This document shows, one piece after another, positions 17,929-57,313 of a stretch of 64,000 nucleotides of DNA. Origin of the DNA: a virus; the IMG/VR virus record IMGVR_UViG_3300030114_000522; one strand, 5' to 3'. The notes beneath the pieces are model-generated. The model was not told the DNA's origin. It saw only the letters and a list, made by a program, of their open reading frames with translations, and made no database searches. The position numbers and the translations under genes were made by a program. Position 1 is the stretch's first letter. Each line of letters begins with the position of its first letter.

Positions 17929-19491
17929 TTAATATATTTTTAAGTTATTTAATTTATTTTCTATATCATACTTTATATATTCTTCTAGGTTTAAATCTTT
18001 TATATATTTGAATTTAAAATTATGATGATGATTCCTTTTTCCTAAGCAAACATATATCACGTTACCATTTAATAATTTAACTCCGAACAACTCTTTACTT
18101 TGTCTTTCTAATTCAGCACTAGAAGAAAACACATGTCCAGTTGTTATACATATAATTGGTTTTCCATATAGTTTACCTAATTTGTAACTACGATTATATA
18201 ATTCTTCTTTTGCATTATAATCAATCCAATCCCATATTTTAGAACCCCTTTTAAGATAATTCAGTACAGTAGTTCTTCCCATATTCATCATTTTCCCAAT
18301 TTCACTTGTTGATAAGTCAGGAAAATCCCTTTTTATTTCACAAATAATTTTTAACAAATTACTAAAAGTAAATTCTTCGCAAACTTTCCAATCTATTTTA
18401 TCTAAATCAAAAATATTATTTAGATTGCTTTTTAATATGTTATTCTTAATCCATTCTAATACACTATATCTACAATCAATAATTATGTAATTTTCCTCTT
18501 TAATATTATTGGATAAAGCTAGTTCTTTCTTTAGTTTATCATTAAACTGTTCTTCTTTTAATGTTCTTGCACCTTTTATATTTTTAAAACTATTTTCATA
18601 ATGTTGTAATCCATTTACTTCTAAAATATATTGTTCATTATTATATTCAAAATAAAAATCATATCTATATGCATTTATCCATTCAAAAGTGGTTTTAGTT
18701 AATTGTGTTTGAAAATTTATATTTAGTTGTTCTAACATATTGAAAATTATTTTCTCACTATAAGAAACATTATCTGAACATGAGCAACCTATTGAATGTT
18801 GCTTATAAATTAATCCAATTTTCATTTCTTTGTTTTTAACTCTTCCACAATCAGTACAAGTTGGATTAATTTTAAATCCACTTCCACGAGTATATTTTTT
18901 AGCAACTTCCTCACCTATATATGGAATCATCCACTTATCTGTATCATATATTGTGTTAATGCCTAAGACGGCTTTAAAATTATTACAACATGAACATCCT
19001 TTTTCTTCTAAACTACTCTCTCGTACCCAATCCTCATAGTTGCAAATATTACAATGATACTTGTACCATTTTTCGTTTATATTATTCATATTTATTTTAT
19101 ATTTTGTTATAATCTTCTTATCTATAACTATAATATCACGTTTTTTATCCTTATAAGAAGTGCCAATTTTTATTTTAAAATCTTTTGTATGTTTACCTAA
19201 TAATATACCAAGTTTACATTTTTGCAAATTTAATTTTGATATTTTGTATTCTTTATTATCATATTTTACAAGTATATCATTCTTATTTATCCATTTTTTT
19301 ACTTCAATCCAGCCTTCTAAATCATCATAAATAAAATATATATATTGTTTAATTGATTCTTTCCAATTATAAGAATTTCCCTTTTTAGATAAACATTCTA
19401 AAAATGATTGTCTACATTGACCACTCTCAATTAATTCTTTATTTATTTCTTTAAATTTATTTATAATTTCTAAATATTCTTTTTTGTTCAT
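17929..19491 (-). CDS. free-standing homing-endonuclease-like protein (Zn ribbons, Vsr/PD-(D/E)XK-like domain, HTH, NUMOD1-like)
   Basis: several CxxC; SYSEK...RYDFYF...ILEVNGLQHY...D..K; C-terminal KPIICITTGHVFSS. Confidence 0.75.
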   Translation of the reverse strand: MNKKEYLEIINKFKEINKELIESGQCRQSFLECLSKKGNSYNWKESIKQYIYFIYDDLEGWIEVKKWINKNDILVKYDNKEYKISKLNLQKCKLGILLGKHTKDFKIKIGTSYKDKKRDIIVIDKKIITKYKINMNNINEKWYKYHCNICNYEDWVRESSLEEKGCSCCNNFKAVLGINTIYDTDKWMIPYIGEEVAKKYTRGSGFKINPTCTDCGRVKNKEMKIGLIYKQHSIGCSCSDNVSYSEKIIFNMLEQLNINFQTQLTKTTFEWINAYRYDFYFEYNNEQYILEVNGLQHYENSFKNIKGARTLKEEQFNDKLKKELALSNNIKEENYIIIDCRYSVLEWIKNNILKSNLNNIFDLDKIDWKVCEEFTFSNLLKIICEIKRDFPDLSTSEIGKMMNMGRTTVLNYLKRGSKIWDWIDYNAKEELYNRSYKLGKLYGKPIICITTGHVFSSSAELERQSKELFGVKLLNGNVIYVCLGKRNHHHNFKFKYIKDLNLEEYIKYDIENKLNNLKIY

Positions 19492-23285: not shown

Positions 23286-26200
23286 TTAATTTGATAAATT
23301 TGTTTCACTTTCAACTGCTTCAAGCATACTCTTAATAAATTCTTCAGCATTATTTGCATTAACTTTAACATCTGTAATACTATATTGATTTATTGTTTTA
23401 GCATTAGAATTATTATTTGTTGTACTATTAGTAGATGATAATAAATTAGAACTATCTAATGTATATGATGATAAACCACTATAAGCCGATGTTTCAGTAT
23501 AATTTGCTTTTGCCTTATCACTATATAATGGGTTATTAGAATCATTATATAAACTTAATTTTGAACTAGTTAAATCTAATACTGATTGTTTATATTTTTC
23601 AAAATTAGCTAATTCTTGAGATATGTCTATAGAATTCATAGGTGTAAAATTTTTATCGCCCTCATGCATATTATTATACATCTCTTGAAATTTAACATAT
23701 GAGGATTCCATATCTACTAATAATTGCATTATTAAATCACTACTACTGGTCGCAATACTTACAATATTAGTAAATCTATAATCATAAATTATTTGAACCA
23801 ACTCTAAGAACTTGTCTGTAAATTTAGTATATATATTAGCAAAATTCTTTAAGCTGTTTTGTTGGTCACTTTGTGCTTTTGTTTGCTTATCAAATAATTT
23901 TTTATAATATGAATCATATTCATCTTCAAGCTTTTTATCAGTATCTTGTAAATTTTTTAGATTTTCATTCAGTCCACTTGAATCAATATTTACTATATTA
24001 TTGATTTGATTTTTTCTATTTTTTATATCTTCTTCACTTATTATACTACTATCTTTTTTAGATAATAAATCATCATAAGTTTTAGATAATTGTGTTAAAG
24101 ATTCATTGGCATTATTAGCACTTGAACCAATACTTTTTAAATGATTATCTATATCATTATTATCTACTTTTGATTTTTCAGTAATTTTGTCCTTATTTTT
24201 TTGTAAATACTTTGATATATCTCCACTATTAATAGCATTATCTGCATCATTAGTTGTAAAATTAGCTCTTAATGTTGTTAATTCTTCTAATGATTTTTTA
24301 GTTTTAGTTAATGTTGCATCTATAGAGTTTGCTATTGCATTCCAATCATTATTATTATTTTCCACCAATTTTCCCAATGTATCTTTTGCTAATTTATCAA
24401 TATCTGAATAATAATTTTCAATACGCCTTTTATCTCTATCTTGTGCTTCTTTTAAATTATCACTGTATTTGTCTAGATATTCTTTCTTTTTTTTATATGA
24501 ATTTTCTTCTTCTGTTTTTTCAGATTCAAGAACTTTCTTTTTTTTATCTAATTCATCTTTTCGTTTAATGTCTTCTAAATCTTTATTTGCATCTGTAACT
24601 GCTTTTTTATCATCTATGATTGTTTTTTGAGATAAAACATATTGATACTGCCAACTACCATCATTTTGCTGAACTAAAGTTTGTACACTTCTTTGTTTTT
24701 CATCTCTTGCTAATTGTGCTTCTTTTTCTTTAAGAGTATTATTTTTTTCTTGTAAAGCATTGGCTTTTTCAATTGCATCATTTTCATCATCTAAAGCTTT
24801 TAATTCAGATGCAAATGCTTCTAATTTTGCATTATGAATATCTTCTTCTTTTGTTTTTATAGCATCTAATTTATCATTTTGAGCTTTTTGTTGTGCTTCC
24901 AATTTTTGAGTATCAATTTCTTTTTGTTTTTCTAATATAGATTTCTCTTGTTCTTGTATGGTTTTTTCCATTTCTTGATTTAACTTATAAACTTCAAGTG
25001 TTTGAGTTCGTAGTTCTTTATTTGCTTTAAGTGTTGCATTTTCTAATGATTCATTCGCTTCTGCTGTTGATACTGTAGTATTTTTTAAAGCATCTAGTTG
25101 TTCTTGTGCCTTTTGAACTTCTTCTTTTTGCTTAGCAATTTTTTGAGTAGTTAAATCAATTCTTTGAGTGAAATTAGAGTCATCAGCTTCGCCTAAAGTA
25201 GTTATACTAGCGTCTATTTGTTCTATATCATCTGCTATTGTTTCTTTGCCTTTATTATAAGCATCGGTGATATCGTCTATCATTTTCTTTTCCCGTGCTA
25301 TTAATTCTTGTTCGGCTTTTTTAGACTTAGAAGCAGAGCTACCATCTGGTTCATAACTAGAATCTGATACTCCTCCAGCAGAACTAGTAGGTAATGTCAT
25401 TGAAGTATATAATTTATCTATTGCATCTTTACCAGCTTTTAGCTTTGCTAATTCTTCTTTATCTTTATTTATTTTATCTGCATTATCTGATACTTCTTGT
25501 ACATCTGAACTCGCTTGCCATGCATCTACTGGTGCTGTTGAAGCAGATGAAGCTAAGGTTATTTTTGCATCGATTAATTTTTGAATTTCACCTATTTCTG
25601 CTTGATAATCAGCAATACGAGCAAGTGTATCTGTATATGTTATAGATGTATTATTATACTGCCATGTCGCATTGGCTTTTTGGTCTTCTAATTTTACTTG
25701 AGTTAAAACTTCAACCGTTTTTCCTTCAGTATTCATGTAACTAATAGTATCACTAATTAATCCAGTATTGGTAATATAAGTTTTACCATTAGCATCCATT
25801 TGTGTATCTAAGTTTCCAATTTTTCCTTGTAGTTGTTCTACTACACCAGTTAGTTCTTTCTTTTGTTCTGTTGATAAATTTTCTTGTGCTGATAAATTAT
25901 TATAGGTAGCATATAAACTTTGAACTGTTTCCATATATTTATTATATTCTTCTGTATTTGCTTCGGTATTAGTTCTATGTTCAACTTGTGCTTTTGTTTC
26001 TTCTTTTATTTTATTAACCATATCAATATTAGCAATTTGTTGTTCCGCTTCTGCTAAAGTATCTGTACTAATACCAGCTTTTTTCATAACGTCGGAATAT
26101 TCATCTACTTGTTTATTTAGTCCACTTAAAATGTCTCTTAATTGTTGTGCTTCGGTTAATCCATTTTGACCAACTATTTTAGTTTCGCTTGCGTTATTTA

Positions 26201-29200
26201 ATTTATCTTGCGTTTCTTTTTTTAAATTCATTAGTCTTTCTAATTCAGCTTGGTCTTTTTTAATTTTATCTAAATTAGTTGAGGCACCTTTTGTATCACC
26301 ATTTTTAAGACTCTCATTTACACCATCTAGTGCAGTTTTTAGGTCATTAGATTGCTTTGCTAAACTTGCTTCATGTTGTTGGTATGAAACCATACCGTAT
26401 ACTACCATTGCTAATGCACCTGCTAAAGCTGATAATAATAAACCTAAAGGCGTTAACATAAAAGCAACTGCTGATGCTGTAGCGCCTTTTATACTAGTTC
26501 CGACTAAACCAAATGCAGTAGCTAATCCCGTTGCTCCATCTTCTAAAGCAATCATTCCTGATGCTATTCCCATAAATTTAGTTAGTCCAGTTACGATTCC
26601 ACCCTCAGTAGTTAATAACATTAATTCTTTATTAATTTTAGATAATTTAGTCATGACTAGAACTAATGAACCTATTGTTGCTATATATGCTATTGTTTTT
26701 CCATCAACATTTGATAATACATTTACTAGTTGAGTTGCTTCTGTAACAAAATATTTTAAAGAATCAGAAGACATTATTTTTTCATATAGTCCTTCAAATG
26801 ACCTTTTTAAATCATTTACTTTTGCGTCTAATGAACCATTGTAGGCTTCGTCCATCATTTTCTTTGCAGAGCCAGCAGATTCTCCTACTTGTTTTTGATG
26901 GATATTCAAAGTATCCATATTTTCCATTAATCCCATTAATGTTTCTCTTTGCCTTGTGCATTTACTTTTATTTATAAACGTTACTTTATAAATGTGATTA
27001 TTTAATCACCACTCTCTTTCAAGACGTTAATAAGACTATTTCTTCACCTTCATCTATTTATTTAATTAAATAATGTTAAGGGCATATCTTTTCCACTATC
27101 AATAACTTATAGTGTACTCCCTGTCGGGATAGTCGTTCAACACATTCCTATTCGGAACTTCGCTACCAAATTTCCATTATATTATTTATTTTATTAAATA
27201 ATCAACCACTTAGGATTTAACCATATAGTCATACCTTACGTTTTTAATAGTTTCCCACATTCACACTTGCCCATATTTCATAGCTATGTTGTAGTGTAAG
27301 GTCTTTAGGGTTTACTGGTTTTAGATATGTGTCCTATGCACATTTCTGTACATACGGGGCAGATTTACCCGCTAAAGCTTGAATTCCAGCCAAATAATCA
27401 ACTTGGCTTAGTTGTCCACTTTTAAATTTTGTCATAAATTGTTGCAAAACATCATCAAATTCTTTAAATTGTCCTTTATTAGTTCTAATTGATATTCCGA
27501 TACGATTCATTGCTAATTCTGTATCATTAATTGATTTCCCTTCATCATCTAATCGACCAAGTTTGATGTTACTATATCGTGAGTAGATTGTTTTAAAACT
27601 TTCACCTCATTTATATATTCATATAGGCTCGTTAACTCCTATACCGTTCTCTAATGAACTGCTTATGATTTCCCATAAGATTAGACTATATCACTCTCCT
27701 AGATTTAATAGGAGACTCACCATTTCCATTCACTTGAATGTACTCCATTACTGGATAGTCGTTAGGCTTTTATGATTAAAATTACTTTTAATTAATTTAG
27801 CACGGTAGGTTAGCATATTACTTTAGCAACTTAGCCTTCCCCGTATTAAGCGAGTTATTCGAAATGGATTACTCCATTAAGCCACAAGTTTGTAGTTTAT
27901 GGTTTCGGCACTTTTTCTTGTTTTTTCTGATACTGTCGTAATATATGCTACAAGATTACCTAATGGTGTTCCTGCTTCTTGGGCACTAAAAGCAGTTCTT
28001 TGTATTGCAGATGCTATTTCTTTAAATGAACTAGCCGAAACATTATCCATTTTAGATATCATATCTACAACGCCTTGCATACTTTCACCTGTCATATTAA
28101 AGGCATTTTTAATAGCAATTAATTGTTGAGTTACTTCTTCCGTAGACTGTCCAGAAACTTTAGAACCTATAATAGATGAAGACATCAGAGCTTCTCCTTC
28201 TTTTCCATCTATACCAGCTCTAGTAATTTCTTCCATACCTGTCATCATTTCAGTATTAGTAGTATGTAATTCCGCTCCTAATTGTTTATATTGAGTTACC
28301 ATTCCACTAATTTCAGATTTAGACTTTCCTGTAATCATTTGCATATTTGTGAGAGACTTATTCATGGTTAAAGTGTATTCACTAGCATCTTTAAACTGAT
28401 TTGCTATACCCCATATAACTTGTTGGATTCCATAAAACATTCCAATTTTACTTAAAAAATTAGTCATATTCCCGAAGAATCCGTTACTATTTATTCCTTT
28501 TAATGAATTATCTAATTGTTTAGTTTCATTATTAGTTTGTTCCATAGAAGTTTTTACAGTACCTAAACTATTTTTTATCCCTGTAAAATTAACTCCATCT
28601 ACTTGTTTTAGTTCTGCTAATAATTTTTTTAACTCTTGTTCTGTAGATTCTATAAATCCACTGGGTAATTTCTCTGCAAAAGTTTGTTTCATTTTCTCTA
28701 CTTTTATATGAGCTTCTTCTATTTGCTTGGTCAGATTAGATACAGTAGTTTCCCTACTAGTACTAGTTCCGATAGAACTTAATGCACTATTAATTTCTTT
28801 TAAAGTTGACGCACTTTTAGTCATTTGTTCTAATTTACTAATTTCAGAATTACTAATTATTCCATTTGATTTAAGAACATTAATTGATTGATACGCCTGT
28901 TCTTGCTTTTGTAATAATTCTTGTTCTTGTTGTAATTGTTTTACATTATCAGAATCACCTTTAACTTGTCTTTTTTGGTCTGATTCAACTAATTTATTAC
29001 TTAATTCAACTTCTTTTTGTAATTGTTGAATACGTTCCTGTTCTTGCTTTTGTAGATTTTGTTCTTCTACTTCTAATATTTTTACTTGGTTTAATAAATT
29101 TTTTAATTCATTATCAGAACCTATATTAGTTGTTGAAAGTCCATTTTGTAAATCCCCAATTTTATCTTTGTTTATGACTCCATTAGAAGACATCTTGTTT

Positions 29201-29676
29201 AATTTTTCTTGCGCATTTGCTATATCATTTAAAGCTTTTGTAATTTTGGTATAATTAGTAATTATAGTAGGTGCAATATCTGATTTAGTACCATCCTTAT
29301 TTAACATATCAATTTCTTTTCTTACTTGTCCAATACCTTGTGCTATTTCAGAAAAAGCTTTTATACTTCCATCTTTATAAGTGGTTATTGATTGTTTTTG
29401 TAATTCTCCATTAAGATTACCCATGCTTTCAACTGCACTATTTATTGTTTTATCTATATCTCCTAATGATATATTCCCCCCTAAACTAGATTTGAATTTA
29501 CTAGCTAAAGAAGTTAAAGTTTCTAATTGTCTTGCTACATTTGAGTCTTTAATATTAATATCTAAATCTATTTTTGTATTATTTAATGTTTCTATTAGAG
29601 TTTTTAGTTTACCATCTATATCTTTAGCACTCTCTAACTGTACTCCGAGTCTAATAGAGTTTTTATATTCAGCCAT
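23286..29676 (-). CDS. tape measure protein split into three exons (29676-27899, 27607-27367, ~26957-23286; ~1896 aa)
   Basis: joined exons read RKSAET-IGESFKTIYSRY...ALAG-TRQRETLMGLMEN, the SPbeta YomI-type TMP core; long coiled coils; TM region. Confidence 0.9.
26959..27366 (-). ncRNA. ORF-less group I intron 2 in the TMP gene (phage IA2-like)
   Basis: P1 GGGU/GCCC with U.G; P7 AACGACUA / UAGUCU; P7.1/7.2; P9.0 UUAUU/AGUAA; ends AAAUG. Confidence 0.85.
27367..27607 (-). CDS. TMP exon 2 (241 nt, missed by ORF track)
   Basis: open frame GESFKTIYSRYSNIKLG...IGISIRTNKGQFKEFDDVL...ALAG between the two introns. Confidence 0.85.
27608..27898 (-). ncRNA. ORF-less group I intron 1 in the TMP gene (291 nt, phage IA2-like)
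   Basis: P1 CCAU/GUGG; P10 AGGU/ACUU; P3 ACUCGC/GUGAGU; P7 GACUA/UAGUC; terminal G; removal restores AU+A GGU (Ile-Gly). Confidence 0.92.
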
Positions 29677-30342: not shown

Positions 30343-31701
30343 TTATATTGCTTGATTTAATTTAGCATTATCTTGAATTTCTTTTATTTGTTCTTCTGTA
30401 AGGTCGGAGGTAAATTTAAATCTATGACCTTTATAGTGTGTTCTTTCACCTCGACAAACTCTTGAAATTCCATTCCTATTTAATATCTCATCAAATATAT
30501 TTACACTTTTTCTTTCATATTCTGCTGAATTTTTAATTATTATTCCATTATCTATACATATTATTTCTTTACCTAACTTAATGCTACTTAATAAACCTGC
30601 TTTTTGTCCACTTCTTTTCATTTCTTCTTTTGGATTATAATAGCATAAACTCATCTCAGATGCTTGTTTTATATAAGTTCTTACTGCACCTGTCCCTAAA
30701 TTAGTTAAAATTACAATATCATTAATTGTCATATTAGGATTTTCATTTTTTATTTGTGATATATATTGAATAATATCCTTACATGCATATTCATGACATT
30801 TTAACCAATCAATCTTACTCAAATCAAATAGTTCATTCAGTCTACTATTTAAAATATGTTCTTTTATCCATTCTAATTCAGATTTTCTACAATCTATAAT
30901 AATGTAATTTTCTTCTTTGATTCCATTAGCTAATGCTAGTGCTTTCTTTAATCTATCATTTTCTTGTTCTTCTTTGAGATTTTTTGACCTTATATTTTGG
31001 AATCCTTCTTCATAATGTTGGTTTCCATGTATTTCCATTAAAATATTATAATCATTTATGTGGAAATCGTATCTTTTGTCACCACATATTTTAATATTTT
31101 TATGGCTAATATCCTTTGACCAATTAAATGTATTTTCTTTTATAAAATTAACAGATAATTGTTGTAAAACATTAAACATAAATTTTTCGCCATATGAGTT
31201 TCCCTTGTTATAACAATTTGGGCACTTAAATCCATCTCTATTTATAATGTGATTTTCAGTTCTTTCATACGTATGGTCACAATTTTTGCATTTAATTTTA
31301 TATCCTTTATGATTAGCTTTTCCAATCCTTAATTGTTTTAATATTATACCTTTTCCAAAATCATCTTTTATAATTTTGTCAATATTAAATCTATATTCCT
31401 TTATATATTTCCCAAACATAGCACCAAGTTGACATTTTTTCAAATTTCCACTTAAAATATCTATTGTTAAATTATTATATTCTAATGTAATTTTTTTATT
31501 ATATTCTGTTATTTTCATATACCCTTGAATTTTATCATAAATAAAATAAAAATAGTAGTCTTTTGTATTTGACCAATCTATTCCCTGTTTAATTTTAGGT
31601 AAATTTTCTAAAAATACTTTTTTACACTTTCCATTTTCAATTAATTCTTTATTCTCTTCTTTAAACTTTTCAATAATATTTAAATATTCATCATTTTTCA
31701 T
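30343..31701 (-). CDS. free-standing homing-endonuclease-like protein, paralog of 17929..19491
   Basis: CKNC/CPNC; SYGEK...RYDFHI...LMEIHGNQHY...END..K; shared IKEENYIIIDCR; NUMOD1-like tail. Confidence 0.75.
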   Translation of the reverse strand: MKNDEYLNIIEKFKEENKELIENGKCKKVFLENLPKIKQGIDWSNTKDYYFYFIYDKIQGYMKITEYNKKITLEYNNLTIDILSGNLKKCQLGAMFGKYIKEYRFNIDKIIKDDFGKGIILKQLRIGKANHKGYKIKCKNCDHTYERTENHIINRDGFKCPNCYNKGNSYGEKFMFNVLQQLSVNFIKENTFNWSKDISHKNIKICGDKRYDFHINDYNILMEIHGNQHYEEGFQNIRSKNLKEEQENDRLKKALALANGIKEENYIIIDCRKSELEWIKEHILNSRLNELFDLSKIDWLKCHEYACKDIIQYISQIKNENPNMTINDIVILTNLGTGAVRTYIKQASEMSLCYYNPKEEMKRSGQKAGLLSSIKLGKEIICIDNGIIIKNSAEYERKSVNIFDEILNRNGISRVCRGERTHYKGHRFKFTSDLTEEQIKEIQDNAKLNQAI

Positions 31702-55949: not shown

Positions 55950-57030
55950 ATTAAAAGTAAGCTTAACGTACTTACCATGATTGTATTACGACTAATAACC
56001 TATTAGTTATATGATACATATATAAGATGTATAGAACTTCATGTATCTCTAGTTCCTAGAAAACTAAGTTTAATCTAATTAAATAATCTAATCAATCTAG
56101 AGTGACCAATTAGTTTCGATGGTACAGAGATTAAAACTCCTCCATCTTTTAATGTTATTTTTCTACAATAGACAATATACTAAATAACTTTCCCTATTTT
56201 TATCGTTGTTAAGGCACAACTACAGTCACTTTCGTACTGCTGATTTTCTATTTAATTACATATAAATTCTCGCAAGAACTTATAATTTATTTGAATATTT
56301 TCTTTCAGACTATTAGTCCTATTCAAGTTGTGGTAAATATTCAACCCTTGTAAAGTTAATTAAACACCTAATCTTGAAACGATATTTAATTTATTACTTA
56401 ATAGATATACATTGTTATCTATTGTGTTACAGTTTCTCACTTTAGATAAATCATGGTAGGGAATCACCAAAATTCTATTATTCCCATATGGGCTAAATTC
56501 TTCTTCTTTTGAGCATCTAACTCAATTCAATATTTGTTGGGATTCTATACCCATTCTTAAATCAGTCGGCGTAAAGCCTTTTAAATAAATCACAAGTCCA
56601 AGAAATTACTTTAAAGTAATATGGAACAATATTAAATCTTCATAATCTCACTTGAAGATTGTGCCCTTCAGCTTAAATTCACTGTTATGTTATTGCAATA
56701 AACATTAATCCATTGTAAATTAGGCATGAATCAAACCTATCATTCTTATAACTCACTATATTACACGTTGGTTTTATAGTTACTAACCTCAGATATGATT
56801 AAGTTTAAAAATGTAACCCGTTTGCCATCCTTTGATTACCCATATTAATTTGGCATATCTGCTTTTCTGCAATCGCCCACCAATTGAGTTGTAACTATCT
56901 CCTCTTTCAATCAATCTACTAGTCTGATTGTAGATAGTTCCCATTTTATATATTAACCACCATTCCACAGTCAATATATTATTTGATTTAAAAGCCGATG
57001 ATTACTATGTAAAAATCAGTTGCTTTTTCT
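55950..57030 (-). ncRNA. candidate large structured ncRNA (GOLLD/ROOL-like context, family not identified)
   Basis: no credible ORF; dense hairpins, GNRA loops, long-range helix; adjacent to tRNA. Confidence 0.6.
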
Positions 57031-57313
57031 ATAACTTGATAGATAAGCTTATAAAATTGTTGTTTTAATGTATTGCTTTATTTCCATTTCTATTAACACT
57101 CCTTAATAGAAATAAATATTTTATTAAATTGCATAGGATGGTCGGTGTATCCATCATTTCAGATACTCTTTCGAGTGCGTAGAGAACCATTTTCTACTTC
57201 TATACAATTCATTGATTCTGTGGCTGGATTTATGTTATTGCTAACTACCCTATCCACCCATTATTTAGTCAAATATCATAATAATGAGTATCTGCTAATA
57301 TTATATTTACAAA

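Follow-up and report, generated by a model that had tools for sequence, protein, structure and literature searches.

How does a phage tape-measure gene with two group I introns give a continuous reading frame when the textbook splice sites leave it one nucleotide out of register? The gene lies on the minus strand of IMG/VR virus record IMGVR_UViG_3300030114_000522, and we call the whole 64,000-nt stretch of DNA that we analyzed the window; positions are those of the window, and a caret in a sequence marks a splice or insertion point. The initial annotation, made from the letters and open reading frames alone, had proposed that in-frame splicing of the gene depends on the skipping of exon 2. 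Among its further options were a 1-nt shift of a splice site, the use of G26952 as the terminal G, and a mutation or sequencing error.

The tape-measure gene and its first intron

We found that exon 1 of the tape-measure protein (TMP) gene matches profile positions 3-133 of the PhageMin_Tail family, PF10145, with 59.6 bits against a cut-off of 33.2. The translation of exon 2, 80 codons long, picks up the same profile at positions 145-187, collinear with exon 1. Four homologous TMPs match it along its full 80 residues, with identities of 61-86%. Exon 2 had been described as intact and conserved, and these matches agree with that description. The genes downstream of the TMP gene encode tail proteins and an endolysin. 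Homologous TMP genes that are intron-free at the site of intron 2 were found at six IMG/VR loci. All six read QALAGTRQ(R/K)ETL at this site, which bears out the earlier remark that AG-TRQ matches a TMP motif, and at the first junction their sequence is SAETIGESFK.

Intron 1 is a canonical group I intron. When positions 27590-27915 were searched alone, the Rfam model RF00028 matched 27908..27662 with 62.0 bits (E = 1.3e-15), exceeding the gathering score of 50. P1 has the canonical form, in which U27899 faces a G of the internal guide sequence (IGS), and the exon 1/exon 2 junction, SAET-I-GESFK, is the same as in homologs without an intron there. The clean splicing that had been annotated for intron 1 is thus upheld. 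By blastn, the core of intron 1 is about 77% identical to the intron cores of Staphylococcus, Bacillus, and Enterococcus phages. Intron 1 is also present on other peat contigs, on which the likeness breaks off at 27607 and 27905, as fits the boundaries of the intron. These contigs have differing flanks, and the 6 to 7 exon bases that pair with the guide are common to them; the differing flanks show that intron 1 also occupies other genes or phages of that community. A megablast search against GenBank phages gave zero matches.

Neither a gathering-score Rfam scan of the whole 64-kb window nor a scan of 26000-29000 with E values up to 1 reported a group I intron. These blanks are filter effects, as narrow scans found intron 1 fully and intron 2 partly. 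Speed filters can hide AT-rich phage introns: intron 1 was missed in the 64-kb scan and scored 62 bits in a 326-nt search.

Table 1. Features of the TMP locus and other features of the window. The boundaries of exon 2, intron 2, and exon 3 are those of the favored reading.
Feature	Position	Strand	Remarks
TMP gene	29676..23286	-	three exons and two introns
TMP exon 1	27899..29676	-	1778 nt; 3' end ..ACC AU; from the open reading frame list and PF10145
Intron 1, canonical group I	27608..27898	-	291 nt; terminal (omega) G 27608, end AAAUG; RF00028
TMP exon 2	27368..27607	-	240 nt with the shifted 5' site, end GCG GG; 241 nt with the textbook site
Intron 2, ORF-less group IA2	26959..27367	-	409 nt; predicted first base U27367, last base G26959
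P1 of intron 2	27357..27370	-	read from sequence; register covaries in the family
Catalytic core of intron 2	27034..27134	-	P7, P7.1, P7.2, P3 3' strand, P8; mapped and aligned
TMP exon 3	23286..26958	-	predicted start C ACA AGG CAA; 3673 nt including the stop codon
Free-standing HNH/homing-endonuclease-like gene	30343..31701	-	0.7 kb upstream of TMP; matches PHROG 559 (HNH endonuclease) and PHROG 9084 (homing endonuclease)
Paralog of the endonuclease-like gene	17947..19491	-	34% identity
Skipping-rope RNA	57129-57207	-	Rfam, 66.5 bits, above gathering score
Drum RNA	56290-56399	-	Rfam, 63.8 bits, above gathering score

The one-base excess at intron 2

Exon 2 starts at A27607 and reads through to GCG GGU, the U of which is 27367. 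The second insert ends in AAAUG at G26959, which is followed by C26958 and then by the in-frame ACA AGG CAA. With the textbook sites, at which U27367 ends the 5' exon and G26959 ends the intron, exon 2 is 241 nt long and the TMP undergoes a frameshift, with a stop 49 codons on. When exon 1 is fused straight to C26958, the frame is open and encodes 1816 aa. The initial annotation was exact on all of these points: the minus-strand coordinates of the exon ends, the AAAUG termini and C26958, the frameshift caused by textbook removal of both introns, and the open join of exon 1 to C26958.

The extra base is real. Logan contigs from three peat-metagenome runs, one of which may be the source sample and all of which may come from a single sampling campaign, cover 26700-27230 (X1), 26700-27674 (X2), and 26700-27303 (X3) with 0 differences and 0 gaps. 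Because the contigs of all three runs are identical over the site, a one-off assembly slip at C26958 is excluded. C26958 also lies outside any homopolymer run. It had been suggested that the base might be missing from reads, which would leave two ordinary introns; the C is present in the contigs of the three runs, and the introns are ordinary in outcome anyway.

We then combined all 5' sites from 27380 to 27355 with all nearby G's as the last intron base. The sole pair that restores QALAGTRQRETL has G27368 as the last exon base and G26959 as the last intron base, and G26959 is the only terminal (omega) G that gives back AGTRQ. The resulting ligation, GCG GG^C ACA AGG, reads Ala-Gly-Thr-Arg, with exon 3 starting at C26958, and the mature TMP joined in this way is 1896 aa long with zero internal stops. 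The Gly codon of the intron-free TMP homologs is GGC, GGA, or GGG, which alone does not separate the splice models, and the P10 pairing of intron 2 with exon 3 (C-G, A-U) is too weak to choose a 3' site.

From the frame logic, the homologs, and the shift and intron-free alleles of the relatives described below, we infer that the RNA of this locus is spliced after G27368. We assign a probability of about 0.86 to the reading in which a 1896-aa TMP is made from a gene with two group I introns, the second being cut after G27368 so that U27367..G26959 is removed and exon 3 begins with C26958. On this reading, the claim that exon 2 must be skipped for the gene to be in frame fails, since the shifted 5' site makes exon 2 240 nt long and normal splicing restores AGTRQ. 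The option of a site shifted by 1 nt gains support, with the shift placed at the 5' site, U27367 assigned to the intron, and C26958 assigned to the exon. An RNA-labelled wastewater run (X24) had no contigs on the exons or on either splice junction and yielded only parts of both introns, with 90-95% likeness.

Intron 2 has the structure of a group IA2 ribozyme. In its P1, exon bases G27370, G27369, and G27368 pair with C27357, C27358, and C27359, and U27367 pairs with G27360. The P1 loop, AAAUCU, is 6 nt long, or 4 nt if the weak A27366-U27361 pair is counted. P7 is formed by GACUAU (27134..27129) with AUAGUC (27039..27034), and the 3' strand of P3 is at 27089..27083. We also identified P2 with a GAAA loop, P3 (CAUAUCU/AGAUAUG), P4, P6, P8, an extended P9, P9.1, and P9.2. 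The assignment to IA2 is based on the P3-P8 helices, the R (AACGACUAU) and S (AAAUAGUC) elements, P7.1/P7.2, and the extended P9; the P7.1 and P7.2 hairpins are the mark of this subclass, as described for IStron ribozymes (PMC4227781). The core elements are complementary and are conserved over eight family members. RF00028 matched intron 2 with 23.7 bits, which does not reach the gathering score, and the match was partial (P8, P7', and P9 only). Intron 2 carries no open reading frame of at least 50 aa wholly inside it, and the two that overlap it, 26798..26977 (plus strand) and 27334..27510 (a read-through from exon 2), both enter from a flanking exon. The textbook rule that the U of the U-G pair ends the 5' exon appears to fail for this intron, because the frame, the homologs, and the intron-free alleles of relatives all place U27367 inside the intron.

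Relatives of intron 2 and the competing readings

We found the 27-nt P2 motif of intron 2 in 20 IMG/VR loci (given below as L numbers) and in Clostridium, Terrisporobacter, and Bacilli genomes. Intron 2 aligns with the IMG/VR family members along the entire core, and by blastn it shows a modest match to the IStron ribozyme of Clostridium phage c-st and D-1873 (75% over 107 nt; E = 2e-4). On relatives, RF00028 scored 61.9 bits for the D-1873 IStron ribozyme and 50.7 bits for L044, both of which pass the gathering score. The cargo of the family is varied: none in window intron 2, L013, L026, and L011; a homing-endonuclease-like ORF in L006, L008, and L014; and a TnpB-like ORF in L009, L024, and c-st, which are true IStrons. 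In L009:6700-8600 and L024:9600-10900, the same ribozyme has a GG^U 5' flank and is accompanied by the TnpB-like ORF, and a RAGATH-18 match (65.7 bits) downstream in L009 is presumably a piece of guide RNA.

Besides window intron 2, four family introns at three further sites were compared: L026 and L044 in a capsid gene and L017 and L011 at two other tape-measure sites. In all five, as in the c-st IStron, the joint is open solely with a cut before the U and never with a cut after it. In window intron 2, L017, L011, L026, and L044, the base next to the terminal G is a C. The frames fit two models: in one, the cuts fall in front of the U and behind the terminal G; in the other, they fall behind the U and behind the next C. 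Among the intron-free alleles of the L026/L044 capsid gene (22 listed), DINLR-A-EVTRYD with a GCN alanine codon was found in 15. The other listed alleles have DINLK-A-EVTRYD (also GCN alanine) in two cases and serine or threonine in seven; none has valine. Because these alleles show GCN alanine and never valine, we assign the C to the exon and the U to the intron.

The P1 register covaries in 14 of the 15 tabulated members, with exon GGG, AGG, AAG, and GAG facing guide CCC, CCU, CUU, and CUC, and in all 14 members that fit it the 5' exon ends with G. The fifteenth member, L006 (listed as L016), has no P1 site in the family register. At L006:3150-4775, a homologous intron with an endonuclease-like ORF of about 370 aa is inserted 7 nt downstream of the window's site (GGA ACA AGA^intron^CAA AGA GAA). 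The last base of its 5' exon seems to be A, no exon matches its guide GCCUC, and a small hairpin, AAGA/UCUU, may be its P1.

Other tape-measure introns, in L013:6573-6956 (reverse complement), L014, L008, and L025, have the guide (A)UAUUCUC, the complement of GAG^AAUAU in the joined exons. An A-U pair takes the place of the U-G pair in them, leaving no wobble at the 5' site. Introns of this L013 type are flanked by a G on both sides, so that the 5' exon may end with either G or A. The start of window exon 3, C-ACAAGG-CAAAGAG-AAACA (26940-26957), resembles them: ACAAGG is the 3' terminus of L013-type introns, and CAAAGAG^AAACA is their exact 5' exon-intron junction. This likeness may have arisen by chance, given how A-rich the sequence is, or it may reflect an earlier movement of an intron.

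In related phages, the PhageMin_Tail region of the tape-measure gene has at least six intron sites in about 150 codons (L001, L002, L003, L006, L007, L008, L013, L014, L025, and window 26959-27898). The insertion sites are ETI^GES, AIN^RIG, AG^TRQ, TR^QRE, QYQ(Q/R)E^YN, and GEKE^NxR. L002 and L003 have an extra ORF-bearing insert upstream, and L014 and L025 have two tandem introns 45 nt apart. In the window, the two endonuclease-like paralogs flank the tail module, and the product of the one upstream of the TMP gene is weakly similar (28% identity) to part of the ORF encoded by the L008 intron. It is possible that this endonuclease acts in trans as a mobility helper for the ORF-less introns.

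How do other readings of the extra base compare with a cut after G27368? The textbook cut after U27367 could be combined with G26952 as the terminal G, which gives GGU^CAA and an in-frame 1894-aa TMP without Thr-Arg, and ACAAGG is also the 3' terminus of the related introns L013, L014, and L025. However, the TR that would be deleted is invariant in 6/6 homologs, and alignment with intron 1 and the family makes AAAUG the natural terminus. L017, L011, L026, and L044 also need an upstream 5' shift, and the intron-free capsid alleles lack the U. We rejected the G26952 option, which the initial annotation had raised, because the conserved TR is lost and the relatives do not fit, and we regard it as very unlikely. 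Less probable still is the skipping of exon 2, in which exon 1 (..AU) is joined to C26958 to give a 1816-aa TMP and perhaps a second, shorter tail. Joining exon 1 to exon 3 preserves the frame, as follows from the 240-nt length of exon 2 under the shifted site, and multi-intron phage genes such as Twort orf142, which has three group I introns, can give skipped products in vitro. Nevertheless, skipping is unnecessary, since full splicing with the shifted site is already in frame. It would drop conserved PF10145 positions 145-187, and its junction, ETITRQ, is matched in no homolog.

A one-base excess is the typical signature of a sequencing error or an inactivating mutation, and the gene could then be a pseudogene in a defective phage. 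Against this stand the three identical assemblies, the position of C26958 outside a homopolymer, and the recurrence of the excess, under textbook sites, in five more elements of the family, which occupy four other insertion sites; we consider an error or mutation scarcely credible, and the sequencing-error option is not borne out. We give equally little credence to a canonical 5' cut after U27367 with a 3' cut after C26958, one base beyond the terminal G. This combination likewise yields AGTRQ (GGU ACA), and it accommodates the C that follows the terminal G in intron 2 and in the four relatives at the capsid and tape-measure sites. However, it predicts a GUN (valine) codon where the intron-free capsid alleles have GCN (alanine), and on these alleles we rejected it. 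It also needs a terminal nucleotide other than G, against group I chemistry and against IStron mutagenesis, in which every alternative 3' site examined, in the 100 variants with the heaviest use of such sites, ends in G (10.64898/2026.03.11.711047). Moreover, the U is missing from the ligated exons of the IStron BcISt1 by RT-PCR (PMC4227781).

We therefore return to the cut after G27368. According to this model, intron 1 (27898..27608) would be spliced canonically. Intron 2 belongs to an IA2 lineage whose ribozymes also make up the 5' portion of group B IS607-type IStrons. In this lineage P1 retains the U-G pair, but the first cleavage falls one nucleotide upstream of it, after a G paired with a guide C, so that the U becomes the first intron base. 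In intron 2, guanosine would attack after G27368, with G27368-G27370 held on C27359-C27357 and U27367 facing G27360. G26959 would then act as the terminal G for ligation of exon 2 to C26958. The cut may follow the last G-C pair of P1, and not the wobble, throughout the lineage, that is, in phage capsid and tape-measure IA2 introns with or without homing-endonuclease or TnpB cargo; we hold this wider proposal only tentatively, at a little less than even odds.

Consequences and comparison with known systems

If intron 2 is cut as we propose, then applying the textbook rule of a U before the intron and a G at its end to this family would produce false frameshifts, pseudogenes, and spurious claims of alternative splicing in phage structural genes. 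The annotation rule for the family would be to cut before the U. Experimental proof of a 5' site one base upstream has so far been obtained only for an IStron, and the window locus and its relatives suggest that short phage introns without cargo, whose P1 hairpins are very small, behave in the same way. Short introns with a small P1 are convenient substrates for testing the choice of the 5' site. If cutting is indeed independent of the wobble, ORF-less introns of 380-410 nt would be minimal natural models of a non-canonical way of choosing the 5' site. The introns of the L013, L014, and L008 type, with A-U in place of U-G, and L006, with its 5' exon apparently ending in A, bear on this wobble-independent reading. 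The PhageMin_Tail region of tape-measure genes is heavily colonized by introns across related phages. The residual interest lies in the breadth of the lineage in phage structural genes and in the variants without the U-G pair.

The closest precedent is that of Tourasse, Stabell, and Kolsto (2014, NAR, PMC4227781), who split IStrons into two groups, with group B found after GG-ending sites. Group B elements follow an exon whose final base is G and themselves begin with the U of the U-G pair, on the loop side of which no further pairs form (PMC4227781). RT-PCR and sequencing of BcISt1 from Bacillus cereus ATCC 10987 showed that it splices after the G, and the full-length BcISt1 intron circle contains the U that the ligated exons lack (PMC4227781).

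Intron 2 resembles the group B IStrons BcISt1 and c-st in its IA2 core, P7.1 and P7.2, extended P9, and terminal G. Its flank, GCGGG^UAAAUC, fits the group B definition, with a GG-ending target, U as the first base, and G at the end of the 5' exon. As in group B, U27367 pairs with a guide G, and on the loop side there is at most one weak A-U pair (A27366-U27361). In contrast to group B IStrons, intron 2 has no transposase or TnpB gene and no IS component downstream of P9.2, and it is without the long AU-rich inverted-repeat stem around the ORF site. Its 3' end is AUG (AAAUG), whereas that of group B IStrons, including c-st, is CGG. It is 409 nt long, compared with about 1.9-2.6 kb, and unlike the group B IStrons it sits in a phage tail gene beside a second, canonical intron. 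Lacking an IS part and ending in AUG, intron 2 is not an IStron, and the analogy covers the ribozyme part only.

Two kinds of phage system also invite comparison. Among the classical phage IA2 introns (T4 td/nrdB, SPO1, Twort, and Staphylococcus Kayvirus; RF00028), intron 1 is a regular member, at 62 bits. Intron 2 has the R and S elements, P7.1/P7.2, and the terminal G in common with them, but its last exon base would be G and not U. Like Twort orf142, the TMP gene of the window has clustered introns, predicted to be self-splicing, and short exons in one essential phage gene; unlike in that comparison case, nothing in the TMP gene requires or shows alternative splicing.

The same 2014 study mentions a group IA2 intron of Turicibacter that stands alone and has a GGAGG homing site (PMC4227781). 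By its published description, this intron is, like intron 2, free and without an IS part, related to group B, and preceded by a GG-ending 5' flank; it is bacterial, whereas intron 2 is in a phage. On sequence grounds, intron 2 fits best among the stand-alone IA2 introns of the group B IStron ribozyme lineage, like the Turicibacter intron. The one-base 5' shift is an already published, little-known property of this ribozyme lineage, and window intron 2 would be a new stand-alone, ORF-less case of it.
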